Of a stretch of 64,000 nucleotides of DNA, positions 1,992 to 18,333 are shown piece after piece. The notes under the pieces were generated by a model, which did not search any database, was not told where the DNA came from, and saw nothing but the letters and a program-made list of their open reading frames with translations. Source of the DNA: a virus; the IMG/VR virus record IMGVR_UViG_3300045988_110279. The stretch is one strand, 5' to 3'. Position 1 is the first letter of the stretch. Each line of letters begins with the position of its first letter. The translations under genes were made by a program, and so were the position numbers.

Positions 1992-2030
1992 GGATGCGGG
2001 AATTTTTTAGGCAGAGAAATTGGCAATCCC
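1992..2030. promoter_or_regulatory. inverted repeat gcgggaatt...aatcccgc containing an AATTGGCAAT motif
   Basis: Stem of about 8 bp. It contains the reverse complement of the ATTGCCAATTT motif found upstream of the recombinase gene. Confidence 0.3.
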
Positions 2031-2150
2031 GCGTTTTAAAAACGATCGGAATATCCAAAAGAGGTAAAAAATTGAGGTAAAATTTCATATGTACGTAGAG
2101 GAAGTATATCATGATTTTGAGAAAATATTTAGTTATTGGGTAAAGTTAAT

Positions 2151-2179
2151 TTGTTTTTACCCTTTATTTTTTATATAAT
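2151..2179 (+). promoter_or_regulatory. candidate promoter for gene 2198
   Basis: TATAAT at 2174-2179 with a weak TTGTTT -35 element 17 bp upstream. Confidence 0.3.
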
Positions 2180-2197
2180 ATAAGGAGGTGATAGAAG

Positions 2198-2836
2198 ATG
2201 AAAGGAAATATATCAAAAAGATTTCCTGCTAATGTAACTCTTGATACCTAGACTTTTTTAAATGACAAAAAGATTGATGGAGAATTATATGCGTTATTTT
2301 AGGAATTATCGTATGTAGATAAAAATGGATAGACAGTGGTTTCAAAAGATGATGTTCCTTCGTAGAATAGTCTATGTGAGAAACTTGGTATAAAAACTCC
2401 AAAGACTTATCGAGCGCACAGAGATTATCTTATAGCTTAGGGTTATATAATTGATGATGAAGAAAATAGGTAGTATATTCTTCCTATGAAAGAAGATATT
2501 TTTTTTATGATTCCATTGTAGACTTTGAGATTTATAAATGATACTTTGAAGGAATAGGTAATCAAGGTTTACACATATTTAGGGCAAAGATGGAAATATA
2601 AAGAATCTTTAGGCACGGATGAAAAATATAGTTTTACTCTTAAGGAGATCGGTGAACATATAGGATTAAAAACAGAAGGAAGTTCAAGAAATTCTTAGAT
2701 TGTGACAAATGCGCTACTGTGTTTGTCAAAGCTTGGTCTTATTGAGTATGAAAATTATTATGATTAGAGTAATGGTAAACCCGTTCCTCGTATGAGATTA
2801 ATCTAGTTTAATTTGACTATTGAGCTGAATGGGTAA
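2198..2836 (+). CDS. helix-turn-helix protein, putative replication initiation/organizer; 11 in-frame TAG codons
   Basis: RBS AAGGAGGTG then ATG. A continuous 212-codon frame ends at TAA only if TAG is sense, and the translation is protein-like (KLGIKTPKTYRAHRDYLIA...). Confidence 0.5.
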
Positions 2837-2878
2837 TTTTATCTATCTACGAAAGGGTAATTTTATCTATTTACGAGA
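2831..2878. repeat. tandem 24-bp direct repeat (iteron-like)
   Basis: gggtaattttatctatctacgaaa / gggtaattttatctatttacgaga, two adjacent copies immediately after gene 2198. Confidence 0.6.
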
Positions 2879-2930
2879 GGTAAAAAATCATATTATATCT
2901 AAATAATATACTAAATAATTTATCTAAGGG

Positions 2931-2978
2931 ACTTCGATATTTCTTCGAGCTCCGCTCTCAGAATATCGAAGTCCCATG
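2931..2978. promoter_or_regulatory. long inverted repeat (14-bp stem)
   Basis: gggacttcgatatt...aatatcgaagtccc, upstream of gene 3008. Confidence 0.5.
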
Positions 2979-3007
2979 TGCCCGCAATTATAATGGAGGA
3001 TAAAAAT

Positions 3008-3430
3008 ATGGAAGTATTTAAACCAATTAAGGTAGAAAATTATCAATTCGTGAAAAATGGATTAAATTAGTATGAACCAGTATTAGTTTACTTTAAAGAT
3101 GATGATGAAGAAGAAGGCAAGGTATATTTTGTAAAGAATAAATTTGATGATAAGTTAGAAGAATGGATGGAAGAGAATTTAAAGGTAGAAGGAAGAAGTA
3201 GAGTTATAGTAGATAAATATCATAATAGGATAAGTATAGATGTTTTTACTCAAGATTTAGAGGACTCTATAACCGATTTAGAAAAACGAATTGAAAAGTT
3301 AGAAGAAGGTTTTAGAGAAATCGAATTGAAAAATCGAGATAAAAATGGAGAGATATATGATTTGGTTGGAAGGATAAGAGAGATAAATAGAACTGGATAG
3401 AGATATAGATTATCTTTATATGAAGATTGA
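3008..3430 (+). CDS. hypothetical coiled-coil protein (recoded)
   Basis: RBS GGAGGA then ATG. In frame with track ORF 3167..3400. TAGs at 3068 and 3398 are read through to a TGA. Confidence 0.4.
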
Positions 3431-3564
3431 AAGAAATTAAAGGAAATTAAAAGGAGTTTATAAAATGGTGGAGTTGGGTGCCGATCGGGTCTAGGTATGA
3501 ACCATCACAACACTCGTCACAACGATCGTAAACCTAGCCTTCCGCGATTATAATATATATAAAA

Positions 3565-3590
3565 AGGAGAGAAGCTATAATACTTCTCTC
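3565..3590. terminator. bidirectional hairpin terminator
   Basis: ggagagaag-ctataatac-ttctctcc between convergent genes. Confidence 0.55.
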
Positions 3591-3616
3591 CTTTAATCTT
3601 TTTCCTCTTGTTTATC

Positions 3617-4060
3617 TTACTTCAAATGTCTCAAAAACTCCATGATATTGTCCTCATCAGTCTTAGCCTTATTCATACTACCTGCGAGAGCATCAGAAAT
3701 AGAGTCAACAGCAATGTCAATTACTTCATCAAGACTCTTTGCATTGACTACTCGAGCGGAAGTCTTAGCAGTTACAGTCATAGCTTGCATAAACTGCTTA
3801 ATATCATTTGCTGTCCACTTAGGATTGCTCTTGCTATAAACCAGCGCAGCTACACGACCAACGTCATCCTCAGTGAGAGACAAATCATCAACATTGCCAT
3901 AAAAAGTAGACTCAATCTCATCCAGAAGAATATCGCGTTCACGGTCTGCGGCGTTAGCCTCGGAGATTCTATTCATAGCATCGGTAAATGCCTTTGCAAT
4001 CTCCTCCTGAGTAGAACCATTCTGCATTGCATCACGAATCATAATCTCATAACTATTCAT
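3617..4060 (-). CDS. hypothetical protein
   Basis: Track ORF with protein-like composition and TAA stop. The overlapping plus-strand ORF is low-complexity and rejected. Confidence 0.55.
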   Translation of the reverse strand: MNSYEIMIRDAMQNGSTQEEIAKAFTDAMNRISEANAADRERDILLDEIESTFYGNVDDLSLTEDDVGRVAALVYSKSNPKWTANDIKQFMQAMTVTAKTSARVVNAKSLDEVIDIAVDSISDALAGSMNKAKTDEDNIMEFLRHLK

Positions 4061-4127
4061 AATAAGTTCTTTTAGTTAGAAAAAGCGTTATGATGCTTCT
4101 TAAACTAAAATCCTCCTTTTCTTTATC

Positions 4128-4160
4128 TTATGTATATATTATATTATATTTTTTATATAT
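4128..4160 (-). promoter_or_regulatory. candidate promoter for 3617..4060
   Basis: Minus strand reads TCGACA-17-TATAAT. Confidence 0.4.
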
Positions 4161-4239
4161 TGTCGAACCGATCGGGTCTAGATAAAAAGATCGCTTTAAC
4201 GGAATCCCGCGGAAAAGATTTTTACTTTTTAAATTGTTA

Positions 4240-4605
4240 GCAACATTTTTGCTATTGTTTGCTGTATCTTTAATAGTTTTAATTCTGTGAATATCAAGAA
4301 ATTTTGAGAAAAACGAGGCATTTTTTGCTTATTTTTAAGTAAATTTGTTAGAAAAATGCGCATTTTTGCAAGATTTTAGAGGTTTTTCGTTATATTTTGC
4401 GATAACAAGAGGTAAAGTCATGCGGGCCGATCAGTTTATCTAGCTAAAATCTCTATTTTTGAGCTATTTTTATCATAAAATCGTGTTAAACCGATCGGTT
4501 CCGCGAAAGAAATCTCTGGTCGTATTTGTTTTTCATAGGTATATCTTTGCTATTGCTAGTTGTATTTTAGAAAATTTTGGTACTGTGAATACTTGACAAT
4601 TTTAA
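4240..4605. repeat. pair of degenerate ~60-bp direct repeats
   Basis: tgctattgtttgctgtatctttaatagttttaattctgtgaatatcaag (about 4240) versus tgctattgctagttgtattttagaaaattttggtactgtgaatacttgac (about 4545). Confidence 0.5.
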
Positions 4606-4707
4606 GATTTTTATTATAAAAAATTGGACGAGAGAGCCAATATTGCTGGACCGATCGGAACTAGATAAAGGAAGAAGTAAAGTAGGGCCGATCGGTGTTT
4701 GGAAGAG

Positions 4708-4782
4708 GGCGTTATGAATTTTGGGAAAATCGCTATGAAGTTGCGTTATGGCCAAGTTGCTATGAAAATTTTGCGCTATGGT
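4708..4782. repeat. phased GC(G)TTATG / GCTATG(A/G) short repeats (5 copies, ~11-14 bp phasing)
   Basis: gcgttatgaa, cgctatgaag, gcgttatggc, gctatgaaaa, gcgctatggt. Confidence 0.5.
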
Positions 4783-4847
4783 CCGATCGGGGAAATTCGG
4801 GCCGAGTCGCCCGCGATCGGCCCGTCGAGTTTAGGAAATATAAAATA

Positions 4848-4871
4848 AAAAGAGAGGCCGAAGCCTCTCTT
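4848..4871 (-). terminator. intrinsic terminator
   Basis: agagaggc-cgaa-gcctctct followed by a T-run on the minus strand. Confidence 0.6.
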
Positions 4872-4874
4872 TTC

Positions 4875-5126
4875 TTAATCCTCGTTTTCTAAATTGATTT
4901 CTCCTATACAGTTACACCGTATCGGAGATTCAAAAACAAATTCATCTCCATATCCAACGATAGTTATTTCTCCATACTTTTTACAATACTCGTCTATCTT
5001 TTCGATTAGACTATTCCAATCTTTCTCTTGCGCTTTTTGTTTTCTAAGTGCCACTTCTTTATAGGCGGTAGCACTCAACCATTGCAACTCCTCATCATTC
5101 AGTTTGTTGAAATCAATATCAACCAT
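4875..5126 (-). CDS. hypothetical protein
   Basis: Track ORF, TAA stop. Confidence 0.55.
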   Translation of the reverse strand: MVDIDFNKLNDEELQWLSATAYKEVALRKQKAQEKDWNSLIEKIDEYCKKYGEITIVGYGDEFVFESPIRCNCIGEINLENED

Positions 5127-5143
5127 CTAAAAATCTCCTTTCT

Positions 5144-5596
5144 TTAATGAAAAATCTCAGCCGGAATTTCACTAAAAACTTGCTTAAATTGCTCCATAGT
5201 CAGTTCTCTTGCCGCTCTCTCAACCCTTTCTTTTGCCCAGTCGCAAACCATTTCGCAGGAAATAAATTTAATTTCATACCCAGTAATGGCGTAGATTTTA
5301 GGCGACCACTCAAATCTTTTTGTATCAGCCATATTTCCAGTTAAAATCATATATTCGCCGGTGGCTTGATTTTCTTCTGACTGTTCAACCCAACATTGAA
5401 CTATATTTTCAACATAGTTTTTTCCAGTTTTAACCGCTTCTTTTTCGGTTCGAGCATTGATTAAAAAGGTAGAAAGCATAATATCATCACGAAATGATAC
5501 CGTAAATTTATAAGGCTTCTTAGAGAAGATACCCTTGCGACCTTCACACCAAAAGGTAACTTGAAAATTAACACGAAATTGTTTTAAGCTTTCCAT
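5144..5596 (-). CDS. hypothetical protein
   Basis: Track ORF, TAA stop. Confidence 0.55.
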   Translation of the reverse strand: MESLKQFRVNFQVTFWCEGRKGIFSKKPYKFTVSFRDDIMLSTFLINARTEKEAVKTGKNYVENIVQCWVEQSEENQATGEYMILTGNMADTKRFEWSPKIYAITGYEIKFISCEMVCDWAKERVERAARELTMEQFKQVFSEIPAEIFH

Positions 5597-5768
5597 TTCT
5601 TTTATCTCCTGTAATAATCTTCAATATAAAATTTCATTTCTTTTTCTGTACTTTGTCTTAATACCGAATAAATAGTGGAAATGTCAAGGCAAGTTCTTTT
5701 AATTAAGAAACGAATGATAGAGTTTTTAAGTTTATTCATCATTTCTTTTACCTCCCTTCCATGGTTAA

Positions 5769-5797
5769 ATGATACCACATTTTCGGGAGAAAGTCAA
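5769..5797 (-). promoter_or_regulatory. sigma-A-type promoter TTGACT-17-TGgTATCAT
   Basis: Minus-strand -35/-10 with exact 17-bp spacer upstream of gene 5144..5596. Confidence 0.6.
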
Positions 5798-5806
5798 GCT
5801 GTCAAG

Positions 5807-5840
5807 TTGCACAAATTTTCAATTCAAAATTGTTGAAAAT
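5807..5840. promoter_or_regulatory. inverted-repeat operator TTGCACAA...TTGTTGAA
   Basis: One member of the repeated TTGCACAA-N-TTGTGCAA family, located just upstream of a -35 element. Confidence 0.5.
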
Positions 5841-5859
5841 GACAATAGAAGAAAAATTC

Positions 5860-5928
5860 GGACCGCGGCGCACGCAAGCGGTCCGCTCAAAATTTTGCAT
5901 AAAAAAATCTCCCCATAAGGGGAGATTT
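5860..5928 (-). terminator. tandem intrinsic terminators (GC hairpin 5860-5884; hairpin 5905-5928)
   Basis: Both stems are followed by T-runs on the minus strand. They lie downstream of gene 5933..6283. Confidence 0.6.
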
Positions 5929-5932
5929 TTCT

Positions 5933-6283
5933 TTAGTTGAGAATTATTGGATATGCCTTGCGAATAACCACCGTAACCATGGCCGGGGGAGTGTCGCACA
6001 AGAAACGATCATTTCTGATAAAACGACCAATTCCCATATTCTGCCACAAAGTCCGGTTTACATCCTCGTATCGTAGGGTATTATACTTGGAAAGTTTGAT
6101 ATGCCAATCATAGATAAAGGAACCATCTTCCGGCATGGTGTAATCTGGCGCCCGCTTATAATTTCTCGTATGCTCTGCGGCTCTGCGTTCAAGGTCATTT
6201 GTCGTACCAATCTTGAGAATATAGCGCCCCTTTTTGTCGATATAATGTCCGACATATAGGAACTCTTTTCCCCTTGTCTGCAA
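5933..6283 (-). CDS. GIY-YIG family nuclease
   Basis: FLYVGHY...YILKIGTTNDLERRAAEH matches the GIY...YIG...R...H(E) motif order. Confidence 0.55.
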   Translation of the reverse strand: MQTRGKEFLYVGHYIDKKGRYILKIGTTNDLERRAAEHTRNYKRAPDYTMPEDGSFIYDWHIKLSKYNTLRYEDVNRTLWQNMGIGRFIRNDRFLCDTPPAMVTVVIRKAYPIILN

Positions 6284-6339
6284 ACTAACTATAACTTGCC
6301 TCTTTTCTGGTAGGGCCGGGGTAGGCCGACCCTACCCCG

Positions 6340-6657
6340 TTATTTCTTCGGCTTACGCTTTTGCACAAGCGTCAACTCGAAACTATCCCCACCAATAGAA
6401 AACGCAATCTGTCTTTCCTTGTTAGTAATAGACAAGTCAGCGATAGAGAATTGACTGTTTTTTTCCAAAAACTCTGCCAATTCCGCAATTATACCGCCTT
6501 TCGTGGCGTTTGGCTTGCGTTGCCGTGTAGTGAACTTATATGCGGTTGGCTGTTTGCGCGTTCCAGCATGGGCAAACTTTTGAGCGATTTTCGCCTTTTC
6601 TGGCGGTAAATCGTATTCAGTCTTTTTATCAGCCTCTACCGCCTTATCATAGGCCAA
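6340..6657 (-). CDS. hypothetical protein
   Basis: Track ORF, TAA stop. GC hairpins flank it at 6302-6338 and 6762-6795. Confidence 0.5.
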   Translation of the reverse strand: MAYDKAVEADKKTEYDLPPEKAKIAQKFAHAGTRKQPTAYKFTTRQRKPNATKGGIIAELAEFLEKNSQFSIADLSITNKERQIAFSIGGDSFELTLVQKRKPKK

Positions 6658-6795
6658 TAAATCTGCCTCCTCTTCCGGCGTTAATTGCAGGGCTTTATAC
6701 CTTGCAATCCGTTCAGCGTCACTAATGCGACTGGATATAATATCACCCCCATATTATAAGTTAGGGCGGGGATTTTCACCCCGCCCTATACGGGG

Positions 6796-7206
6796 TTACG
6801 CCATCTTAAAGAGGGACTTGCCCTTCTTCTCCGTGCAGACTACTCGACCATCGAGTTTCAACTGCCGCACAAGAGCGGCGACCTTCTGGTTAGAATAGGC
6901 CGTCAGATCAGGAATAGCCTTAAAAATTTCCGTGCAGGTCACGCCATCGGTATCGGCGTCCAGACCAGCCAGATACTCCATAATCTGCTCCTTAAAGTTT
7001 TCGTTCTCCTGCTGGGTGGGAGTCAGCTTCTTGTCACCGCTGGAGCTATTCTTCTTACGCAGAAGCTCCAGCTCATGGTCAATGACAGTAATGGCCACCT
7101 CGATGGTAGTGCCATACTTTACCTCGCCGTCAGTCAAGAGGGCCTTAATGTCCTCAAAGCGCTGGGCCTTGGTAATGCGGATTTTCTTCTCGTCCATAAT
7201 ATACAT
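6796..7206 (-). CDS. hypothetical protein (possible C-terminal winged-helix)
   Basis: Track ORF. C-terminus reads KVAALVRQLKLDGRV. Confidence 0.5.
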   Translation of the reverse strand: MYIMDEKKIRITKAQRFEDIKALLTDGEVKYGTTIEVAITVIDHELELLRKKNSSSGDKKLTPTQQENENFKEQIMEYLAGLDADTDGVTCTEIFKAIPDLTAYSNQKVAALVRQLKLDGRVVCTEKKGKSLFKMA

Positions 7207-7245
7207 CCTTTCTGGTTTTTAGGACTGTCCTTGTCCTTTGATTAT

Positions 7246-7446
7246 ATTGTACCACACTATTTGGTACTTGTCAAGAGGTTTTTCAAACTTTTTTCAAGAA
7301 CTTTTGCTCTTTACTTGTTTGCCCTCTCAACCTCCCTTATAGTGTAACACACTTTGGAAAGTTTGTCAAGCCCTTTTTATTTAATTTTCAAGGTGCATTG
7401 CCTTGTTTTCTGTACTTATTATAGCACATCTTCAAAGGCTTGTCAA
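7246..7446 (-). promoter_or_regulatory. three tandem leftward promoters (P1 7246-7274, P2 7341-7369, P3 7418-7446)
   Basis: P1 is TTGACA-17-TACAAT, P2 is TTGACA-17-TACACT, P3 is TTGACA-17-TATAAT. All are on the minus strand. A 15-codon leader ORF with an AGGGAGG RBS lies between P2 and P1. Confidence 0.55.
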
Positions 7447-7553
7447 GAGATTCTTGAAAGATTTTTGAGAAATTCGCTGTCGCTGTCTGCCGTTCGTCTC
7501 TCTCACTTTCTGAATGTATTTTACCACAAGCAAAAGCAGATTGCAAGCGTCAA

Positions 7554-7632
7554 ATTGCACAAAAAATCTGAATTTTGGGAGAAAGTTTTTGTGCAGAATT
7601 TTACACAAAACGGAGCTGAAATTTTTGTGCAA
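7554..7632. promoter_or_regulatory. operator-like inverted repeats TTGCACAA / TTGTGCAG / TTGTGCAA
   Basis: Three half-sites of the same family. Confidence 0.5.
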
Positions 7633-7651
7633 CATTTACAAAGAAAAACTC

Positions 7652-7718
7652 GGGTCGCGCCGTTCCTGCGCGACCCGCTCAAATTTTGTATAAAAAAAGA
7701 AGGGCCGAAGCCCTTCTT
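7652..7718 (-). terminator. tandem intrinsic terminators
   Basis: gggtcgcgc...gcgcgaccc and aagaagggc-cgaa-gcccttctt, each followed by a T-run on the minus strand. Confidence 0.6.
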
Positions 7719-7900
7719 AACAGAAAATACAGTTATCCAGAAAATCAAACAGGTGTTCATCCTCAATGGGAACATTTACCAGCATATTTCCATCTTCGTC
7801 AATATCATCATGACACCATCCCATACGCTCAATAATTTGAATTGCCATATAAACGGCATCTGCGCACAGAGAAGAGGTATATACAGTTTTTGTTACCATT
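7717..7900 (-). CDS. small hypothetical protein (60 aa)
   Basis: Internal start MVTKT with a GAGGAGG RBS, inside track ORF 7717..8052. Confidence 0.4.
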
Positions 7901-8092
7901 TTATTCCTCCTCGAAATCATCAACTCCATATTGTCTCTGATATTCGTCACAGTCGAACCATGGCTCACCCAAAGAGCAACAAAGTGATTCCGTGTCAAAA
8001 TCTGGGCAGATAGTATCATAGATTTGTTCTGGGTCCATGCCTTCCTCGGCATAATGCGGGCAACTCCACCGCATACAATGAACTTGAGACAT
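7901..8092 (-). CDS. small acidic Cys-rich protein
   Basis: Track ORF of 63 aa. Confidence 0.4.
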   Translation of the reverse strand: MSQVHCMRWSCPHYAEEGMDPEQIYDTICPDFDTESLCCSLGEPWFDCDEYQRQYGVDDFEEE

Positions 8093-8119
8093 ATTATTTC
8101 CTTTCTGTCGGGCGGGGCT

Positions 8120-8911
8120 TTAAGCCCCTACCCGGATAGTTGGAATTGAACGCATACTTGCGGAAAGTTGACGCTGAAAATCTGTCATAGGTGGAAACTC
8201 TCTCTTATTCTCATACAGGGCCTTTCTCATGGGCTTATGCTGACGCATACAATACCACATGATTTCCGCCTCAATGAGAACATCCTCAAGCCCCGTATGA
8301 CTTTCTTCAAAATCGGTATTGCCAGAAATAAACCGCCACACGATTTCCGCAGTCTTACGAGGAACGCCATTGGCCTGGACATATCCGTTTTCCTGACAGA
8401 ATTTCTTATAAGTGGGCATATTGCAGATAACATCCTGTGTCATCTTCATAATGTCCCAGATTTCCACACTATCAAACGGGAACCAGTAGCGGAACTTGGA
8501 GCAAGTGACCCATCGTTGAGTGACCCGCAGAGCGTTATCGTCAAACCGGGCATTATAAGCAGCTACCTCTTTAATCCCGTATCGCTCGATGGTATCAAGC
8601 ATAGCCTGCCGGATTTCATAAGTTGTAGCCATCTTACGAGTGCCGGCCCGCAATTCTTCGACATAGCGGGGGATTTTCCAATTATAATAGGCCGTCCGCA
8701 TGAGATCCCGCTCATCGTTGAAAATGTCCCTATTTACAAAACTGGCAGTTTCATAAATATTGCCCTTGGTATCCACTACCGCCCATCCGCAATCATAGAC
8801 AAGAACGCAACTCATATCCATGCGGGCTTTGCCGTTTTCGTCAGTTTCAGTCAGTGTGTTAGCAGTTTCAGTATCAACCACCAAAACATAGTGTCTACGC
8901 TTATCAATCAT
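8120..8911 (-). CDS. DEDDh 3'-5' exonuclease (DnaQ/RNase T-like)
   Basis: Exo I motif VVDTETAN, Exo II motif AYNARFDDNAL and Exo III motif HTGLEDVLIEAEI. Confidence 0.75.
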   Translation of the reverse strand: MIDKRRHYVLVVDTETANTLTETDENGKARMDMSCVLVYDCGWAVVDTKGNIYETASFVNRDIFNDERDLMRTAYYNWKIPRYVEELRAGTRKMATTYEIRQAMLDTIERYGIKEVAAYNARFDDNALRVTQRWVTCSKFRYWFPFDSVEIWDIMKMTQDVICNMPTYKKFCQENGYVQANGVPRKTAEIVWRFISGNTDFEESHTGLEDVLIEAEIMWYCMRQHKPMRKALYENKREFPPMTDFQRQLSASMRSIPTIRVGA

Positions 8912-8943
8912 AATCTTTGACTTCCTTTCCTCTTGTTGAGTTT

Positions 8944-8972
8944 ATTATAGCACATATCATGCTTGATGTCAA
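8944..8972 (-). promoter_or_regulatory. promoter TTGACA-17-TATAAT
   Basis: Exact consensus on the minus strand upstream of the exonuclease gene. Confidence 0.65.
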
Positions 8973-9137
8973 GAGGAAAAGGAAATTTTTATTGCGATTT
9001 ACTGCAAGCTACTGGGCATTAGAACGGCCTATTCTAACGGCGTTCACTCGACTTACGACACAATATAAATTTACTTCCTTTACTTTCTAAGAGTTCGCGA
9101 CCTCTTGATTTCTTGGCCTTCCCCTCTTGACAAATAT

Positions 9138-9166
9138 ATAATACCATACTTTCGGGATAATTACAA
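9138..9166 (-). promoter_or_regulatory. promoter TTGTAA-17-TATTAT
   Basis: Cassette promoter. A short leader ORF with an AAAGGAAG RBS follows it. Confidence 0.4.
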
Positions 9167-9175
9167 GATGGCAAA

Positions 9176-9207
9176 TTGCACAAAATTTGCAAGCCAAAAT
9201 TGTGCAA
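9176..9207. promoter_or_regulatory. inverted repeat TTGCACAA-N16-TTGTGCAA
   Basis: Best-formed copy of the operator family. Confidence 0.55.
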
Positions 9208-9228
9208 CATCGACAAAAACAAAAACTC

Positions 9229-9300
9229 GGCTCGCCGCGTGCGCCAGCGAGCCGCCCAAACGATATTAAAGAGTAAAAATAAGAGGGCCGAAGCCCTCTT
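9229..9300 (-). terminator. tandem intrinsic terminators
   Basis: ggctcgc...gcgagcc and aagagggc-cgaa-gccctctt with T-runs on the minus strand. Confidence 0.6.
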
Positions 9301-9487
9301 AATATCCAAGATATTCTTTATTAATAATCTCGTCAAGCCAATAGCTCAAATCTTCAAGCGAAATATCGTCATCAATTTCATTGTCGGCCATAACCTGATC
9401 AATTTGACCAATGAGAATGGACGCATTTTTCAATACTTGTCGCTCTTCCTCGCTGAGGATAAGCCTATTAACCTTTCTAATCTTCAT
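9299..9487 (-). CDS. small acidic hypothetical protein
   Basis: Track ORF of 62 aa ending at the terminator. Confidence 0.5.
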   Translation of the reverse strand: MKIRKVNRLILSEEERQVLKNASILIGQIDQVMADNEIDDDISLEDLSYWLDEIINKEYLGY

Positions 9488-9527
9488 TTACAAAACTTCC
9501 TTTCTTATTTTAAGATTGACTGGTGGA

Positions 9528-9992
9528 TTACTCTACCAGTCGCCATAAGGCCGTAGGTAAATCTTCATGCGGTTCGATTGTTTCTCCTAAATGCCAACCA
9601 TCCCGCACACTTTTATTATCGTCAATCAAAATAAAATTGCTAACCCCCGGCTCGAAGTATTTTCGCACACAGTTTGCTTTTGTTGTGCCATATTCCACAA
9701 GGTGGACTTTATGTGCGGGGAAGTTGTATTTTGCAAGCCAAGTGCGCTTTGCATCACGGACAGCGGTTTTATATGAGTTAGAACTGTCTTTTGCAAGCCA
9801 ACTGATAACCCGAATTTCCCAGCCCTGCTCAATAAGTTTATTGAGAACGGTATTCAATTCTTCCATATCGCAAAGAGGTTTAGCGACTGTATATGGATAG
9901 GGGTTTTCATTCATTAAATCTTTCAGCCATCCATCTACGCCGTACAGGTCAGCGATTGTTCCATCCATATCAAAGCAGAGCATCTTTTTCAT
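9528..9992 (-). CDS. HAD-superfamily 5'-nucleotidase-like phosphatase
   Basis: N-terminal CFDMDGTIADL (the DxDGT motif I). Confidence 0.55.
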   Translation of the reverse strand: MKKMLCFDMDGTIADLYGVDGWLKDLMNENPYPYTVAKPLCDMEELNTVLNKLIEQGWEIRVISWLAKDSSNSYKTAVRDAKRTWLAKYNFPAHKVHLVEYGTTKANCVRKYFEPGVSNFILIDDNKSVRDGWHLGETIEPHEDLPTALWRLVE

Positions 9993-10024
9993 TTTGATTT
10001 ACTTCCTTTCTTTAGGTTGATTAA

Positions 10025-10053
10025 AGTATATCAGATTTCGGGATAGAAAACAA
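10025..10053 (-). promoter_or_regulatory. promoter TTGTTT-17-TATACT
   Basis: Cassette promoter upstream of gene 9528..9992. Confidence 0.4.
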
Positions 10054-10061
10054 GAGGCAAA

Positions 10062-10093
10062 CTGCACAAAATTTCGGCTGGAAAATTGTGCAA
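10062..10093. promoter_or_regulatory. inverted repeat CTGCACAA...TTGTGCAA
   Basis: Operator family copy. Confidence 0.5.
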
Positions 10094-10114
10094 CTTCTAC
10101 AAAAGAGAAAATTC

Positions 10115-10193
10115 GGCGCGCCACGCACGTTAGCGCGCCGCCGAGAAGCCTATTCAAAAAATGGGATAAAAAAGAGGGCCGAAGCCCTCTTTT
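10115..10193 (-). terminator. tandem intrinsic terminators
   Basis: ggcgcgc...gcgcgcc and aagagggc-cgaa-gccctctt. Confidence 0.6.
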
Positions 10194-10653
10194 ATCTTTC
10201 ACATATATTTGCAAGAAATCTTGCAGAAAGTTTAACCATGTCATGGACAGATTCTTCGTTATTGCTATTTTTATAGCAAATAAAACCAACCTGGTCGCCA
10301 TTCACAAGAATTGGTGTAATAAACATACTTTCCCATTTTGTCGCCGAACTGCGAATATCAATCCAGTCATCGGGAACTCTTGTAATTCCAAAGGAACGCG
10401 GCCCGCATAAAATTCCATCATTGTCAAAAATAGCCGCGGCGATTCCGTTAGATGAAAGGGCATTTTGCATTTGTTTAGCGTAAGAGGAAAATTCTCCCAT
10501 TATAGAATATTTCTTAAAAACTACGCCGCCATCTTCTTCAAGAAAAATCTCTAATGGGTCGCCTTCTCTAATATGAAGGCTTCTACGGATTTCCTTTGGA
10601 ATTACTATCCGGCCCAAATCATCAATACGGCGCACAATTCCAGTAGCTTTCAT
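10192..10653 (-). CDS. AbrB/SpoVT-family transcriptional regulator (N-terminal swapped-hairpin domain plus C-terminal GAF-like domain)
   Basis: MKATGIVRRIDDLGRIVIPKEIRRSLHIREGDPLEIF matches the AbrB/SpoVT N-domain. Confidence 0.75.
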   Translation of the reverse strand: MKATGIVRRIDDLGRIVIPKEIRRSLHIREGDPLEIFLEEDGGVVFKKYSIMGEFSSYAKQMQNALSSNGIAAAIFDNDGILCGPRSFGITRVPDDWIDIRSSATKWESMFITPILVNGDQVGFICYKNSNNEESVHDMVKLSARFLANICER

Positions 10654-10705
10654 TTTTATCTGCGGGAGTGCAAGATTTATAGTCTTGCACTCCCTTCCTC
10701 CATTC

Positions 10706-11098
10706 TTAATCCAGTTCTTTCAACATCCGTTCGAGGTCAGCTTTAGTACCACCCAACTCAAGCGTAAGAATAATTTCCGTTACGGCATTTTTCTCCCAGT
10801 CGCTAACTTCCCGCATGGCCTTTTTCTTCTCGTTCTCCATAGCGGGGTAAATACAATCCTGGCAAGCCTCTACCAGCCGGTCATTATATCTGCGGAAACT
10901 CATCCCCTTGTTTTTAACCTCCGAAAGAAGTTCGTCGTTAAGGGCTTTTACCGCCTGCTTAACTTTCTCCTGCATGATTTTACACTCTGTCTCATAAGCG
11001 GAAAAGGTTTCATGGACAGCCTGCCTCTTGATTTCAGCCTTTACTCCAACTTCCTTTTCAATATACTCCCGAACAACCTTACTAACACGCATTTCCAA
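10706..11098 (-). CDS. hypothetical protein
   Basis: Track ORF. Confidence 0.5.
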   Translation of the reverse strand: MEMRVSKVVREYIEKEVGVKAEIKRQAVHETFSAYETECKIMQEKVKQAVKALNDELLSEVKNKGMSFRRYNDRLVEACQDCIYPAMENEKKKAMREVSDWEKNAVTEIILTLELGGTKADLERMLKELD

Positions 11099-11144
11099 AA
11101 CTTCCTTTCTTAATTTTAATTTTTATTTATCGGGGTCGCCCCTT

Positions 11145-11180
11145 CCATGGTCTTATTGTACCATAGTTGGGGCGATTTGT
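11145..11180 (-). promoter_or_regulatory. promoter TTGACA-17-TACAAT
   Basis: Minus strand reads ggggTTGACAaatcgccccaactatggTACAAT. Confidence 0.6.
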
Positions 11181-11187
11181 CAACCCC

Positions 11188-11340
11188 TTACATCAAAGTT
11201 TTTGCAAGATACGCAAACATTAAAATCTCCGCCGCAAACATGATTTCAAGTCCTATGCAATCTCTTTCAATAGCGGCTACAAATTGCCATACCAGACATA
11301 GAACAAAAGCAATCAGAATTATCATGGTAAAAGTTGTCAT
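11188..11340 (-). CDS. small membrane protein (~50 aa)
   Basis: Internal start MTTFTMIILIAF with a GGGGTGAG RBS. Confidence 0.4.
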   Translation of the reverse strand: MTTFTMIILIAFVLCLVWQFVAAIERDCIGLEIMFAAEILMFAYLAKTLM

Positions 11341-11344
11341 ATAC

Positions 11345-11602
11345 TCACCCCGCAAAGGAAACTTCCGCAAAGTTGATATTGAAACGCTCCCATTCACTTT
11401 CCATACCTAACATCATATCATGGAAAAGGTCATCACGATTTTCATATCCATCTTCTTCCAGAATAGCCTCCCATTCTCCATCGTCATATTGATTTTCCAG
11501 ATAATCCAAAGCAGACTTGCGGGCGGCGATGGTATTAGACGCTACGCAGATAGGTTTATCGTCGTATCCGTCCGTGACCAAAATCATTTTCTTTTCTTCC
11601 AT
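11345..11602 (-). CDS. acidic hypothetical protein
   Basis: Start MEEKKM with RBS AAAGGAAAG, TGA stop. Confidence 0.45.
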   Translation of the reverse strand: MEEKKMILVTDGYDDKPICVASNTIAARKSALDYLENQYDDGEWEAILEEDGYENRDDLFHDMMLGMESEWERFNINFAEVSFAG

Positions 11603-11655
11603 GATTTTTTCTTTCCTTTCTTTCGAGGTGTTTCTGTCTCCCTCTTTCTGATAAT

Positions 11656-11684
11656 AATATACCACAGGCAAAGCAGAAAGTCAA
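11656..11684 (-). promoter_or_regulatory. promoter TTGACT-17-TATATT
   Basis: Cassette promoter. Confidence 0.45.
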
Positions 11685-11713
11685 GCGATTTTAGGAAAAA
11701 ATCTTTCGTCAGA

Positions 11714-11745
11714 TTGCACAACAATTCGAGCCTAAAATTGTGCAA
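11714..11745. promoter_or_regulatory. inverted repeat ATTGCACAA...TTGTGCAA
   Basis: Operator family copy. Confidence 0.5.
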
Positions 11746-11767
11746 ATTGCCTCTTGATAAAAAATTC

Positions 11768-11835
11768 CGGCCGCGCCTGTGGTGCACGGCCGGGCGAACA
11801 AATAAAAAAAAAGAACCTCCTGAATTTCAGGAGGT
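11768..11835 (-). terminator. tandem intrinsic terminators
   Basis: cggccg...cggccg and acctcctg-aattt-caggaggt. Confidence 0.55.
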
Positions 11836-11875
11836 CATTAATTTCTGCATACCAACAACTCCCTTTCTTTTGAGA

Positions 11876-12106
11876 AGTCAATCGGCATTTTCAACAATCT
11901 TTAATCCGTTTGCTTGGATAATTTTCATAGATTCTTCAAGCGAGGAATCAACCGATCCGCAGTCAATACAGATATATTTTCTACCATCTTTTACCATAGT
12001 AGTGAAATAGTATTCCTAACCGGAAGTAAGTCCCATTTGTTCACGCAAACGAATCGGAATCATAATTCTACCACTTGAATCTAATTTGCGAGAGAAAGTA
12101 GTTTCT
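11876..12106 (-). CDS. AbrB/MazE-like swapped-hairpin DNA-binding protein with one in-frame TAG
   Basis: MQETTFSRKLDSSGRIMIPIRLREQMGLTSG(TAG)EYYF... The frame is complete only if TAG is sense. No obvious SD. Confidence 0.4.
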
Positions 12107-12175
12107 TGCATTTTGATAAATAAATTCTAGTGACCTAGGCTCGTGCGAAAAACGACTCCATCACGGGAATCGCCG

Positions 12176-12313
12176 ATTTAGAACAATCGGAAGGAACATT
12201 TACCACTCGCAAGGCATTTTCTGGCAGAACTGAGACATAGGACAATTTTACAAGAATCCTAGTTCAAACAGAACTCCAAAATAACCGCAAGCGCTTTCAG
12301 CACTTCTAAGGTC
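12176..12313 (-). CDS. small Cys-rich protein (45 aa, one TAG)
   Basis: RBS AAAGGAG 8 nt before the ATG. Confidence 0.3.
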
Positions 12314-12516
12314 ATTAGAAAAACTCCTTTCTTTATTTTTCTATAATTATTATAATATATTTTTTTGAAAAAATCAATAGGGCCGGCATTACGCCAGCCC
12401 TAATCTCTGCAACCAAACCAGATGGTATTTACCAATGTGAAGTAGAACTGTGCCATATCCCTTATCCGTCCAGACAGTGGAGCCGATAGGATATGTGTGC
12501 GGTAAACGCTCAATAC

Positions 12517-12732
12517 TCACTTTAGTTCCACCTCCTCGAAAGCTCCAATTTTTAGCAGATAATTATATAAGGCTCTATCTTGCTTGTCACCGGTATTAAA
12601 ATCAAGTGTACGAACACAGCCGGTAACATTGGAATTGAGAGGATGACCCAAACACCAACCAGCCATATTACAAATTGTGTTTCCAAACTCCGCAGATTTT
12701 TCTACACTTTCAAATTTAATAACAGCAATCAT
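12517..12732 (-). CDS. hypothetical protein
   Basis: Track ORF of 71 aa. Confidence 0.45.
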   Translation of the reverse strand: MIAVIKFESVEKSAEFGNTICNMAGWCLGHPLNSNVTGCVRTLDFNTGDKQDRALYNYLLKIGAFEEVELK

Positions 12733-12755
12733 ATTTATTCCTCCTTTTTATCATG

Positions 12756-12786
12756 GGGAGTGGAGATTTATGGCCTCCACTCCCGC
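12756..12786. promoter_or_regulatory. intergenic hairpin gggagtggag...ctccactccc
   Basis: Perfect 10-bp stem between two minus-strand genes, immediately 5' of an RBS. Confidence 0.5.
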
Positions 12787-12794
12787 AAGTTTTC

Positions 12795-13034
12795 TTAACC
12801 ATCTACATAAATGATTAAATTGTTATCTCTTGCCTCAATGCCGGTTACCTGAAGTCCCAGAACCCATTCCTTAGATACCTCGATTACGTCTCCTCCCAGA
12901 GTTATTCTACCATCAGGTAATTCGTGGTAATGAGCTTGGGTATTCTTATTGATAATTTCGAATCCCTCCCCGTCAAAGAACATAGTATCTTCTGCAAGCG
13001 GAGAAAGTAACCAAGCAACCATATCTAAAGTCAT
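12795..13034 (-). CDS. hypothetical protein (79 aa)
   Basis: Start MTLDMVAW with RBS AAAGGAAG. Confidence 0.45.
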   Translation of the reverse strand: MTLDMVAWLLSPLAEDTMFFDGEGFEIINKNTQAHYHELPDGRITLGGDVIEVSKEWVLGLQVTGIEARDNNLIIYVDG

Positions 13035-13086
13035 TTTTTTACTTCCTTTCAAATTCTTTTTGTGGCCTGTCCCTTTGGACAAGTAT

Positions 13087-13115
13087 ATAATAACACATGG
13101 CAAAAGGAATGTCAA
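13087..13115 (-). promoter_or_regulatory. promoter TTGACA-17-TATTAT
   Basis: Cassette promoter. Confidence 0.55.
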
Positions 13116-13143
13116 GTAATTTCGGGAGAAAAACTTTCGTCGA

Positions 13144-13180
13144 ATTGCACAGACTTTCGGTCATATAATTGTTGAAATTG
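13144..13180. promoter_or_regulatory. degenerate operator inverted repeat ATTGCACAG...ATTGTTGAAATTG
   Basis: Family member. Confidence 0.4.
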
Positions 13181-13198
13181 CCGAATAAATAAAAATTC

Positions 13199-13287
13199 GG
13201 GCCGCGGCGCACGCTGGCGGCCCGGCGAAAAGTCAATATGGAAAAGTGCATAAAAATGACTGGCAATCTTTGTGTAGATTGCCAGTC
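13199..13287 (-). terminator. tandem intrinsic terminators
   Basis: gggccgc...gcggccc and gactggcaatc-tttgtgtag-attgccagtc, both with T-runs on the minus strand. Confidence 0.6.
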
Positions 13288-13300
13288 AAGTATTATTCCT

Positions 13301-13534
13301 TTACAGCTCCATGGTTTCCATGAGATAGCCCGTGCCCATCGGCACCTCCCGCAGATTGCTGGGACTTATACGCAACTTATATTTCCTATTGATTTTATTC
13401 GCCGCACTTGTCTTATCTCTTGCTTGGACAATTACTGGTATATGGAGTTTATTCAGAGTGGGCTTATTAAGACTGAAATATCCCATCTCTCTGCGCTTGC
13501 GGCCCATGGCGTCGATATAAGTCCCTCTATACAT
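13301..13534 (-). CDS. small basic protein
   Basis: Track ORF with AGGAGG RBS. Confidence 0.5.
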   Translation of the reverse strand: MYRGTYIDAMGRKRREMGYFSLNKPTLNKLHIPVIVQARDKTSAANKINRKYKLRISPSNLREVPMGTGYLMETMEL

Positions 13535-13547
13535 TTTTTTCCTCCTA

Positions 13548-13700
13548 TTATTTAGTCATGAGAACGAACATATTATATTCGCTGTGCTGTGGGTTTGGCT
13601 CACAGTTATCCGCCACTATATCAGCCCAACTAAGAACTGCCCAGAGTAGGAGAGCGGCACAAATGCCGCCTCCTATCCGCTTAATAATTCTCATTTCCAT
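13548..13700 (-). CDS. small membrane protein (50 aa)
   Basis: MEMRIIKRIGGGICAALLLWAVL with a GGAGG RBS. Confidence 0.35.
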   Translation of the reverse strand: MEMRIIKRIGGGICAALLLWAVLSWADIVADNCEPNPQHSEYNMFVLMTK

Positions 13701-13993
13701 TTCTTTGCCTCCTGTTCTTTAACCCATTCAGTACCGATTGTATCTCCGACCATAGCAATCTTATATTCGTCTTCGCTTGCAATTCTGGTATGCAGATTGC
13801 TATTGATAAACTTTCTATTGATATAAGCCCAGTGTGGCATATAGGCCACTCGCATGGCATTAAAAGCATCCAGGTCTAAGATGATGCCGTCCTCTACCTC
13901 TGCGGAACACACATTCATCTTATACCGCAAAAGTTTAATAAATTCACGCTTTCTAAAAGTAGGCCCAACGAACCACTTAATATAATTGTTCAT
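13691..13993 (-). CDS. hypothetical protein
   Basis: Track ORF with RBS GGGGAGAAAGG. Confidence 0.5.
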   Translation of the reverse strand: MNNYIKWFVGPTFRKREFIKLLRYKMNVCSAEVEDGIILDLDAFNAMRVAYMPHWAYINRKFINSNLHTRIASEDEYKIAMVGDTIGTEWVKEQEAKKWK

Positions 13994-14038
13994 AGTCTTT
14001 TATCCTTTCTCCCCGTATAGCCGTTAGGTCAGCTTCTT

Positions 14039-14185
14039 TTTAATCTACGATTTCTCCACTGGATAAATCTACAATCCAATGATTGGGATTGACTATCTCG
14101 TGACTGGCTTTCCATCTTGCCATTGAAAGGGTGGATGGTTCATAATAGCGCATTTTCTCATTGGCTAAAACCTGTAATTGATACA
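14039..14185 (-). CDS. small hypothetical protein (48 aa)
   Basis: RBS GAAAGGGG 7 nt before the ATG. Confidence 0.3.
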
Positions 14186-14260
14186 TATAGTATACCCCTT
14201 TCTTTTAATTATTATAACCCTGCCTTGCCTTGTGTTTTGCAAGGCAGGGTTTATAAACTG

Positions 14261-14634
14261 TTATCCTCTAATTTCTTCTTCTTGGGTCTTTGTCGCCCAA
14301 TCAAAAGAGGTACGAATATCGGAAGGTCTGCGGAATTGCTCTGCTTCGGCCTCTGTCCCGCCTAATGCCATAGCATAGGCTTTCCAGTCAACCGTTCCTT
14401 TTGCGGTAGTTTCTTTATATACCACCGCTTTCGCCTTACCCTGCATTTGTACCGTGCCATATAGATAACTTGTTTTGTCCGTAGCCTTAAAAGCCTTACC
14501 TAATCTGGAAAATAGCTCTTTAGCCTTAGCCTTAGCTGCTTTCTCCGCCGCCTCCGCCGCAGACTTAGCCATCTTAGCGGCCATATACTCCATAATAATG
14601 GCTCGATCTTCATTGGTAAAATCAATCTTTTTCA
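14261..14634 (-). CDS. hypothetical protein with Ala/Lys-rich coiled coil (possibly Gam-like)
   Basis: Internal start MKKIDFTNEDR within track ORF 14261..14698. The family assignment is speculative. Confidence 0.4.
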
Positions 14635-14688
14635 TACTCTTTTGACTCCCTTTCTTTTTGTGGTGTGGTTCTCTTTTGTTCTGTCTGT

Positions 14689-14717
14689 ATTGTATCAAAC
14701 CTTTAGCAGTTTGTCAA
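14689..14717 (-). promoter_or_regulatory. promoter TTGACA-17-TACAAT
   Basis: Exact consensus on the minus strand. Confidence 0.65.
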
Positions 14718-14842
14718 TACCTTTTTTGAAATTTTTTAATTTTCAAAGTGCCGTGCTTTTGTCTCTGTCCTACTGGACAAGTCCAGTTTACCACCAAAAT
14801 GTTCACTTGTCAATAGTTTTTTTGAAATTTCTTTCTCTCTCT

Positions 14843-14873
14843 TTTGCACAAAATAAATAACATCTTGTTGTGC
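14843..14873. promoter_or_regulatory. inverted repeat TTGCACAA...TTGTGCAG
   Basis: Operator family copy. Confidence 0.5.
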
Positions 14874-15085
14874 AGTTTGCATAAACCCTTTACGCGCGCG
14901 TATTCCTTTAGGGGTGTGCTTTCTTGCTTTCGTACTTTAACGAGTGAAAGAGGCCAACTACACTTCAATACTTTACCATGTGAAAGAGGGGCGTGTATTT
15001 TGGGAAAAACTGGAAATTTTTTTGTAAAATCGTTCTGCCACGCCATTTCAAAATCTAAATCGACTTTTCAATCTCAATAACGAAA

Positions 15086-15113
15086 AAGAGAGAAGAACTC
15101 ACTTCTTCTCTCC
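15086..15113 (-). terminator. intrinsic terminator
   Basis: gagagaag-aactcac-ttcttctc plus a T-run on the minus strand. Confidence 0.55.
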
Positions 15114-15130
15114 GCATTTACAATATAATC

Positions 15131-16525: not shown

Positions 16526-16559
16526 TTGCAGTTTCCTTTCTTCCGTGCGGTTGGGCAGA

Positions 16560-16748: not shown

Positions 16749-16750
16749 TT

Positions 16751-17098: not shown

Positions 17099-17121
17099 TA
17101 TCTTTGTGCCTGTTTCGCTAA

Positions 17122-18309: not shown

Positions 18310-18333
18310 ATGAGTATAAAAGGAGATGACAGT

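Follow-up and report, generated by a model that had tools for sequence, protein, structure and literature searches.

A conserved cluster of short palindromes next to the early genes of a TAG-recoded gut phage: a candidate operator array for immediate-early promoters

The DNA analysed here, a 64,000-nucleotide stretch of the virus record IMGVR_UViG_3300045988_110279 (the window), is phage DNA with a GC content of 35%. Between a group of plus-strand genes (2198-3430) and a leftward array of genes (4875-17191) it contains a region, referred to as the hub, in which a minus-strand gene for a small acidic protein is preceded by a gene-free gap and in which copies of the 8-bp perfect palindrome CCGATCGG are concentrated. 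We call this palindrome the P-box; CCGTACGG is its mutated counterpart for probe design. Neither the leftward array nor the acidic-protein gene has a single in-frame TAG, and both consist of standard-code early genes; the array includes a SpoVT/AbrB-type regulator, a PTH2 peptidyl-tRNA hydrolase and a PARG-like protein. Gene-free gaps were taken from an open reading frame (ORF) map of the window made with genetic code 15, on which 4061-4874 (814 bp) is the largest. An original prediction had described 3481-4830 as the largest non-coding stretch; the gap does deserve that description, whereas the interval as drawn also holds the acidic-protein gene, which is real. The term AT-rich, likewise used for the region, fits the left part of the gap (4061-4640, 28.8% GC) but not the remaining 234 bp (4641-4874, 47% GC), and the gap as a whole has 34% GC compared with 35% for the window. 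The features of the hub are listed in Table 1.

Table 1. Features of the hub, read along early transcription (minus strand, from the terminator T1 leftward), and the leading candidate for the P-box binder.
Feature	Position	Strand	Remarks
Intrinsic terminator T1	4847-4874	-	Ends the leftward early array; stem shows compensatory substitutions between lineages
GC-rich hairpin, CGGGCCGA-N11-TCGGCCCG	4799-4826	-	About 20 nt beyond T1
P-box	4783-4790		Directly adjoins the GC hairpin
Short direct repeats TTGC(N)NTATGR	4711-4783		Three to five copies; about 100 nt invariant across lineages
P-box	4688-4695		Absent in L178
P-box with CTAGATAAA extension	4651-4658		Deleted in L010, mutated in L171
Predicted P2-type promoter, TTGACA-16-TATAAA	4594-4621	+	Faces away from the acidic-protein gene; P-box about 30 nt after -10
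Direct repeat, copy 2	4543-4607	+	Overlaps the plus-strand promoter at its TTGACA
Inverted pair of extended P-box sites, GCGGRCCGATCGGTTTA ... TAAACCGATCGGTTCCGC	4421-4505		Boxes 4427-4434 (CCGATCAG) and 4491-4498
Block D, AT-rich, TTTTGCTTATTTTTAAGTAAATTTGTTAGAAAAATGCGCATTTTTGC...	4320-4395		Near-invariant across six lineages
Direct repeat, copy 1	4245-4309	+	74% identical to copy 2 over 66 nt
P-box	4168-4175		Ends 1 nt upstream of the P3 -35; centre at about -40
Predicted promoter P3, TCGACA-17-TATAAT	4138-4166	-	11/12 matches; gene-proximal, for the acidic-protein gene
Acidic-protein gene, 147 aa	3617-4060	-	No in-frame TAG; hub directly upstream
Bidirectional intrinsic terminator	3563-3594		End of the acidic-protein gene; 12-13-bp stem, T runs on both strands
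Block A, GGTG-CCGATCGG-GTCTAGG...CTTCCGCG	3476-3545		Between convergent genes, at a mosaic boundary
Early 136-aa protein, C-terminal winged helix-turn-helix	6796-7206	-	Leading candidate P-box binder, about 2 kb from the hub

The P-box occurs seven times in the window against 0.20 copies expected from shuffled sequence, with none of 100 shuffles reaching seven, and no other 8-bp palindrome in the window comes close to its over-representation. Six exact copies lie in the hub region (3481, 4168, 4491, 4651, 4688 and 4783), one short of the seven or more originally counted; a seventh hub site, at 4427, is degenerate here and intact in the other aligned relatives, so that the ancestral number is seven. 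Three copies (3481, 4168 and 4651) have the extended form CCGATCGG-NN-CTAG(A/G)TA, and the pair of direct repeats of about 60 bp, offset by 298 nt, is also real. The motif is not similarly dense elsewhere: some 30 kb of genome beyond the window, from the same lineage, gave no further copy, and 1.6 Mb of related phage DNA contains five, so the clustering stands. The only window copy outside the hub (16316-16323) falls within the PARG-like gene (15758-16525) and is shared by the relative L007 (loci are numbered with the prefix L); it is probably a chance or coding-constrained occurrence. A search of the literature on CCGATCGG returned nothing related to phages, and none of the known host regulator motifs compared by eye (the Spo0A box, LexA, CodY, Rex, CcpA, CIRCE, Noc and parS), fits the P-box.

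The hub was compared with close relatives from IMG/VR, ENA and Logan assemblies, which are 93-98% identical to it, and with the more distant lineages L024 and L026, L156, L164 and L171, and L178, the last being a 149-kb contig binned into a metagenome-assembled genome of Oscillospiraceae. Across 17 distinct hub sequences and six divergent lineages the P-box cores are invariant while their immediate flanks vary. In the distant lineages the boxes stand at homologous positions and blocks of the hub are nearly identical, with differences in the flanks and in some spacings. Losses are isolated and affect single copies (4427 in the window, and others in L026, L171 and L010), which suggests redundancy among the copies. 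The 64-bp spacing of the inverted pair is retained in most lineages; elsewhere the distance between boxes changes by multiples of about 10.5 bp in some cases (259 versus 238, 95 versus 84) and not in others (259 versus 263, and the 4651/4688 spacing of 37 in the window versus 22 in L024 and L156). Overall, the hub is more conserved than the adjacent gene, with about 67-78% DNA identity compared with 35-46% amino-acid identity, and block A is near-identical across lineages in which that gene has diverged to this extent. A wider search with a profile of the early 136-aa protein yielded 46 loci; many phages in which this protein is only 40-57% identical have a cluster of about four P-boxes, a small acidic gene and a lone box 670-740 bp further on. 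The hub is a real, strongly selected element that is widespread in a clade of abundant gut phages, and it is the most conserved non-coding element that we found in the window.

To relate the boxes to transcription signals, 13 hubs were scanned uniformly for promoters and P-boxes. The hub holds two or three predicted sigma-A-type promoters. Where a box follows a promoter, its distance after the -10 is 19, 19, 19, 20, 20, 27, 29, 29, 30 or 46-51 nt; where it precedes one, its distance before the -35 is 0, 1, 1 or 1 nt, or falls among nine values of 18-22 nt. Of the predicted promoters, about 17% have a box at 15-32 nt beyond the -10, compared with 5% under random placement, and 37% have one within 25 nt upstream of the -35, compared with 7%. 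Distant hubs share an order of elements, in which a terminator is followed by a consensus promoter P1 (TTGACA-17-TGTGGTATAAT), a GC hairpin with a U tract and a P-box; next come CCATATGCRA motifs among P-boxes, leading to a consensus promoter P2 with a box 19-20 nt after its -10; and last comes P3, with an imperfect -35 and a box 1 or about 18-22 nt upstream, in front of the acidic gene. The CCATATGCRA motif, which alternates with P-boxes in L294, L295 and L298, corresponds to the short TTGC(N)NTATGR repeats of the window, whose minus strand reads CCATAGCGCAA.

The window lineage lacks P1, and its P2-type cassette is inverted. The homologous cassettes in L294, L295, L298, L286 and L289 face the opposite way and have their P-box at 19-20 nt beyond the -10; the cassette of promoter plus P-box thus retains its internal spacing despite the inversion (the window and L178 versus L295 and L298), which is tolerable because the site is palindromic. 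The TTGACA of the P2-type promoter is invariant in five lineages. A promoter at the P3 position is kept in L024, L156 and L178, with an imperfect -35 every time, and all proximal promoters with an upstream box have such a -35 (TCGACA, TTGCAA, TAGACA, TTGATT or TTGATA), whereas P1 and P2 match the consensus. The box equivalent to 4168 lies 18-22 nt upstream of the -35 in L178, L280, L295, L286 and L289. In L178 the place of the P2-type promoter is taken by a perfect TTGACA-17-TATAAT that lies 130 nt upstream and is followed by a P-box 27 nt beyond its -10. The sequence TGTCGAA, which overlaps the -35 at 4161, is not kept in L156 or L178.

These distances are classical positions for a roadblock and for an activator or occluder, and for this reason we favour an array of DNA operators. 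We put the probability at roughly 0.5 that the P-boxes of the hub are an array of operators through which a dimeric DNA-binding protein switches immediate-early promoters. Two properties of such an array are found here, namely a repeated symmetric site under selection, with seven ancestral copies and invariant cores, and a defined placement relative to promoters, which are themselves predicted. A P-box after the -10 would hold a roadblock or repressor, and boxes upstream of the -35, with centres near -40 and -60, would hold an activator or occluder. A single protein, either an early phage product or a host factor, could in this way turn the strong hub promoters down and the promoter of the acidic-protein gene up, or the reverse, and several boxes may cooperate, possibly by looping. 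The leftward early operon does not read into the hub because of the double terminator at its right edge. The region had been proposed to be a protein-binding array, and this general idea is the best supported one, since the octamers are kept while their flanks vary, single copies can be lost and homologous hubs share the octamer; the evidence favours control of promoters over the centromere or origin that the proposal had named.

Every P-box contains a GATC, in a genome that avoids this tetranucleotide (115 observed in the window compared with 229 expected, a two-fold depletion), so binding could be sensitive to adenine methylation; this reasoning, which bears on the methylation-sensitive region of the original prediction, is sound. 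The density of GATC is 7.4 per kb in the hub and 1.7 per kb elsewhere, and in the hub its context is always CGATC(G/A) or AGATCG. In distant relatives GATC is nearly absent outside the hub; in L178, seven of the 10 copies found in 8 kb are in CGATCG sites of the hub. The depletion suggests long-standing pressure from a GATC-directed restriction system. The boxes might themselves form a target cluster for restriction-modification or methylation, retained for the sake of their methylation or of some programmed cleavage, as an exact 8-bp palindrome without conserved flanks is typical of type II recognition sites and the P-box contains both GATC and CGATCG in a GATC-avoiding genome. We regard this explanation as very improbable, since restriction pressure should remove sites and not keep seven of them at homologous positions down to 40% protein identity, since no methyltransferase family was detected among the roughly 40 window proteins scanned, and since the geometry relative to promoters would be left without explanation.

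A protein that might bind the P-boxes as operators is the early 136-aa protein. It is 78-82% identical in the distant lineages that have a hub, far above the value for the acidic protein, and its AlphaFold2 (AF2) model has a pLDDT of 86 and a C-terminal winged helix. A Foldseek search matched this protein to the winged-helix domains of PerR/Fur, MarR (MepR), ArsR and TubR with a probability of 1.00 and weak E-values of 4e-3 to 3e-2, and the presumed recognition helix, NQKVAALVRQL, is conserved. Because the matches are weak and the association with the hub is confounded by relatedness, we treat the assignment as a lead and not as a finding. A more distant phage (L282/L283, IMGVR_UViG_3300033463_000022) has a homologue of the 136-aa protein but no P-box; a different GC palindrome, GCCCGGGC, recurs seven to nine times in its early region, at intervals of 300-1000 bp.

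Several points speak against an operator array. The promoters are predictions from consensus matches, and the spacing statistics overstate the sample size since the loci are related by descent. A P-box cluster is missing from fourteen loci that encode a homologue of the 136-aa protein and have at least 5 kb of downstream sequence. The 'VRQ' form of the recognition helix occurs in 10 of 13 P-box-positive and 2 of 14 negative loci, an association confounded by phylogeny, and the search through the 136-aa protein introduces an ascertainment bias into the set of hub loci. For the binder there are candidates only, namely this winged-helix protein, the SpoVT/AbrB-like early protein (10192-10653) or a host factor. 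Over a range of 40-100% protein identity the motif shows no co-variation with any phage protein, as would be unusual if the repressor were encoded by the phage; a host factor, or a role that does not involve a protein, would fit. Moreover, near-continuous conservation over about 800 bp, including blocks D and I, which have neither promoter nor P-box, exceeds what simple operators need. The two remaining points come from phages unrelated to that of the window.

An 18-mer of block A, GGTGCCGATCGGGTYTAG, is also present in about 20 distinct gut phage contigs of 40-60 kb, here called Class 2. These contigs (L054, L066, L120 and L147-L172, from IMG/VR, 31-61 kb) carry the element next to a divergent promoter region. 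They have no protein in common with the window phage at E <= 1e-4 in the loci compared, and PHROG scans of the genes next to the element were uninformative. The Class 2 element consists of TGnTATAAT, 25-35 nt, GGTG-CCGATCGG-GTTTAG, exactly 18 nt, CCG(A/G)TCGG, a C and a T run. Its two P-boxes form the arms of a terminator-like RNA hairpin, by appearance at the end of a terminated transcript of 65-75 nt, and the second arm is often CCGGTCGG, the sole variant seen, which is compatible with G.U pairing; in these phages the octamer therefore has the look of an RNA element.

If the hub were likewise an RNA-level element, it would be transcribed into non-coding RNAs or leaders, one or several, in which the self-complementary CCGAUCGG octamers would form the arms of hairpins or terminators, act as attenuators or let transcripts kiss. 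Twenty distinct Class 2 elements combine a promoter, paired boxes and a T run, with G.U pairing kept in the only variant; in L294, L295 and L298 a consensus promoter leads through a GC hairpin and U tract straight into a P-box; and the segment 4622-4880 folds better than shuffled sequence (z = -2.9 on the plus strand, z = -4.5 on the minus strand). Palindromes, however, pair trivially in any fold prediction, and in the window lineage the pairs of boxes are not followed by a T run. The partners of a box are not conserved either, as shown by the 4651/4688 spacing, which differs in L024, and by the loss of 4688 in L178. Several boxes lie upstream of a -35 and thus outside the transcript of that promoter. 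The window has no Rfam hit at the gathering threshold, with sub-threshold, terminator-like matches only in 3300-6000, and covariation detected by RNAalifold is limited to terminators, the rest being self-pairing of palindromes. A 45-aa ORF in block I was rejected as a small protein, because its start and stop are changed in L024 and a 1-nt insertion in L178 breaks the frame. For the hub of the window we therefore rank the RNA reading below that of DNA operators and consider it unlikely.

The presence of an invariant octamer in unrelated phages is the most intriguing point left. One speculation, which we also hold to be unlikely, is that CCGATCGG is a regulatory word shared by phages of gut Clostridia and read by a host-encoded factor, possibly one sensitive to GATC methylation. 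Unrelated phages, namely TAG-recoded siphoviruses of about 145 kb and phages of about 40-60 kb, would then have placed the P-box at their strongest immediate-early promoters. What a host reader would explain best is that the P-box is invariant although proteins diverge down to 40% identity, and that it is retained in genomes that otherwise purge GATC. If true, the first minutes of infection or the decision for a carrier state would be coupled to the condition of the host, be it physiological or epigenetic.

The hub could also be a replication origin, in which the AT-rich left part unwinds and the TTGCNNTATGR repeats and P-boxes bind an initiator. It is the largest non-coding stretch in the window, its left 580 bp have the low GC content given above, it contains several kinds of short direct and inverted repeats, and its conservation is unusually continuous, including blocks that have no promoter or P-box. 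The double terminator would shield it from read-through. A hub promoter, which fires into the repeat block, might provide transcriptional activation or an RNA primer, as in T7, at T4 oriF/oriG and in the lactococcal phage c2, and the cluster of GATC within a GATC-poor genome might act as in oriC and P1 oriR. We nevertheless consider an origin rather unlikely. Tandem iterons of 17-22 bp are absent, the spacing of the P-boxes is irregular (37-687 bp), and the only short repeats of this kind are the 10-11-nt TTGCNNTATGR units in three to five copies. There is no conserved DnaA box, the near-match TGTGAATA(T/C) not being kept in L024, L156 or L178. GC skew changes sign wherever gene orientation changes, with no independent switch at the hub, and the tight geometry of P-boxes and promoters is not expected of origin sites.

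An adjacent, conserved initiator is missing as well. The plus-strand genes at 2198-3430 had been called replication-like, a description that we cannot uphold, as they gave weak winged-helix or RepA-like hints alone (E 0.0006-0.03, below family cut-offs). The gene for a 212-aa protein among them (2198-2836) is heavily TAG-recoded, with sub-threshold hints of HTH_36, ScpB and RepA, and is replaced in close relatives by a cassette that contains a ribbon-helix-helix (RHH) gene. The proposal of an origin is weakened by the lack of iterons, of a conserved DnaA box and of an initiator, and by the exchange of the neighbouring cassette.

The other proposal for a protein-binding array was a partition centromere, to which a packaging (pac) site with GATC-containing repeats like that of phage P1 may be added. 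The hub does contain multiple dispersed palindromic sites in non-coding DNA, and seven GATC-bearing repeats recall P1 pac, which has seven hexamers. In addition, the assemblies of relatives are circularly permuted contigs of about 144-147 kb, compatible with headful packaging, and the fold of the candidate binder also matches TubR, a winged-helix centromere-binding protein. Yet no ParA, ParB or TubZ family hit was obtained among the 20 flanking and early proteins scanned, the site is an 8-mer and not a parS-like 16-mer, and the terminase genes (19.4-22.3 kb) are 15 kb from the hub, whereas at a P1-type pac site the clusters of GATC repeats flank a cleavage site within or beside the terminase genes. 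Contig ends near 3444 reflect a mosaic boundary with tandem repeats, and other complete contigs run through it. A centromere or pac site is accordingly improbable, and with neither a parS-like 16-mer nor a ParA/ParB hit among the neighbouring proteins scanned the centromere of the original prediction is not borne out.

A genome terminus at the hub was considered and rejected. Seven short contigs from different samples end at 3433-3489, yet contigs of 144-147 kb run through at arbitrary positions, and the break coincides with a cassette swap and with tandem repeats. Variable tandem repeats of 11-19 nt stand directly left of the P-box at 3481, where many short-read contigs break. Left of block A the sequence is exchanged for another cassette in close relatives: the plus-strand cassette of the window (about 2000-3480) encodes the 212-aa winged-helix protein and a 145-aa coiled-coil protein, both TAG-recoded, and the replacement contains the RHH protein, of 47 aa. 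Block A itself comprises the lone P-box (3481-3488), a tandem 12-nt repeat TCACAAC(A/G)(C/A)TCG (3505-3528) and the palindrome ACGATCGT (3522-3529).

At the other edge of the hub, the GC hairpin belongs to a family with four members in the window (4794 in the hub, 5855, 11763 and 13194). Three compensatory base pairs distinguish the four paralogues, and 96.9% of alignment cells are paired, compared with 22-50% for slid partners. The three other copies are followed on the minus strand by AATTTTT, which makes the hairpin a second intrinsic terminator; the U tract of the hub copy is weak because AATTTCCCC comes next. Within the hub, only the boundary elements combine a GC-rich covarying stem with a U tract, and block D shows no P-box, convincing promoter or consensus RNA structure. 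Five relatives (L002, L012, L013, L014 and L022) do not have window positions 4825-5853, with three small genes, and the deletion runs exactly between two GC hairpins. This suggests that early genes are gained and lost through the repeated hairpin/terminator cassettes, as with promoter-early stem-loop (PeSL) cassettes. A further segment of about 130 bp (5611-5739) is not found in the closest relatives (L001, L003, L004 and others) and appears to be a local duplication or insertion.

The 147-aa protein encoded next to the hub has a pI of 4.5 and is all-helical. None of its 122 homologues has a family assignment, it belongs to no Pfam, PHROG or NCBIfam family, and its AF2 model (pLDDT 79) has no fold match in the PDB. 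The positional counterpart in L294 gives a marginal profile match over 29 residues, so that homology across the wide clade is not established.

In the remainder of the window, the plus-strand block 18160-56669 has ORFs that make sense only with TAG as a sense codon (code 15), as exemplified by a tape-measure-like ORF of 2851 aa with 99 in-frame TAGs (34881-43436) and an ORF of 1304 aa (43488-47402). TAG as sense is also required for 2198-3430 on the plus strand and 56715-61675 on the minus strand. The recoded plus-strand block encodes a sigma-factor-like protein, terminase (large subunit, 20560-22305), portal (22806-24308) and proteins of the capsid region. Its first gene (18169-19380, plus strand) matches the phage sigma-factor family phrog_5767; the product has a zinc-finger/HNH-like tail at the C-terminus and is likely a late-transcription factor. 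No tRNA or suppressor tRNA was found in the window by ARAGORN. An array of 18 tRNAs with interspersed HNH-type endonuclease-like ORFs is located about 8-15 kb left of window position 1 (L269, 13089-20128, in the IMGVR 084596 genome), with no suppressor (CTA) tRNA seen in the fetched part. A probable diversity-generating retroelement, judged from sequence motifs, occupies 57800-61700 on the minus strand, with reverse-transcriptase fragments (57813-58235 and 58588-59031), an Avd-like 164-aa gene (59471-59965) and a 542-aa target (60047-61675), whose C-terminal motif resembles that of a 200-aa protein at 112-714. About 5-10 kb right of the window end, a nucleotide-metabolism cluster (L186, 15553-20066) encodes, as read from the translations, the anaerobic ribonucleotide reductase NrdD (682 aa), its activase NrdG and a dUTPase; NrdD is common to hundreds of large gut phage contigs at 70-100% identity.

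The nearest described relative, phAss-1, is a 136-kb TAG-recoded gut siphovirus (PMC10607447). Its portal is 37% identical to that of the window, and its first 30 kb contain no P-box and no comparable palindrome cluster. GenBank phages have no match to the DNA of 3300-5000. The genes next to the hub are present on hundreds of metagenomic contigs, and the clade consists of abundant, barely studied, large TAG-recoded siphoviruses of human-gut Clostridia.

In these phages the hub appears to control the first transcription, which precedes the code switch that makes the late genes translatable. The P-box binder, once known, would offer a handle on the timing of early and late expression and a portable set of promoters and operators for Clostridia, and if it were host-encoded or methylation-dependent it would be an example of a phage sensing the state of its host. 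The combination of a P-box cluster, a small acidic gene and a lone P-box also provides a DNA signature for the early control region in uncultured relatives.

Among known systems, the KorB/KorA operators of plasmid RK2 (IncP) are similar in that one short palindromic operator is repeated and one dimeric protein acts on several promoters, some copies standing immediately upstream of a -35 (about -40) and the rest at distances of tens to hundreds of bp. The KorB site, however, is a 13-bp palindrome found all over the plasmid, and KorB, a homologue of ParB, functions in partition as well, whereas the site described here has 8 bp, is confined to one hub of 1.3 kb and has no ParB-like gene nearby among the proteins scanned. 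Local concentrations of GATC-containing repeats in a control region are also known from oriC, P1 oriR, P1 pac and Mu mom, for which Dam methylation and the binding of SeqA, OxyR or pacase have been demonstrated, whereas for the hub methylation is a possibility raised by its sequence; the host clade, Clostridia, is not known to be Dam-positive. The PeSL cassettes of T4-type phages are terminator/hairpin/promoter modules that flank small early genes and appear to mediate the gain and loss of modules, a likeness that holds for the GC-hairpin family at the edge of the hub and not for the P-box array.

A further likeness is to the operators OR/OL of phage lambda (CI, Cro) and to the p4 sites at A2b/A2c/A3 of phi29, where a compact intergenic control region adjoins the early genes and its operators let one protein repress strong early promoters and activate a weak neighbour. 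Those operators are 17-21 bp long, number three or four per region and co-evolve with the repressor, giving different immunities, whereas the P-box, with 8 bp, does not vary even between very divergent phages and is also found in unrelated ones. The P-box hub is best described as a region of promoters and operators in front of a small acidic early gene, one that belongs among the multi-operator control regions of phages.

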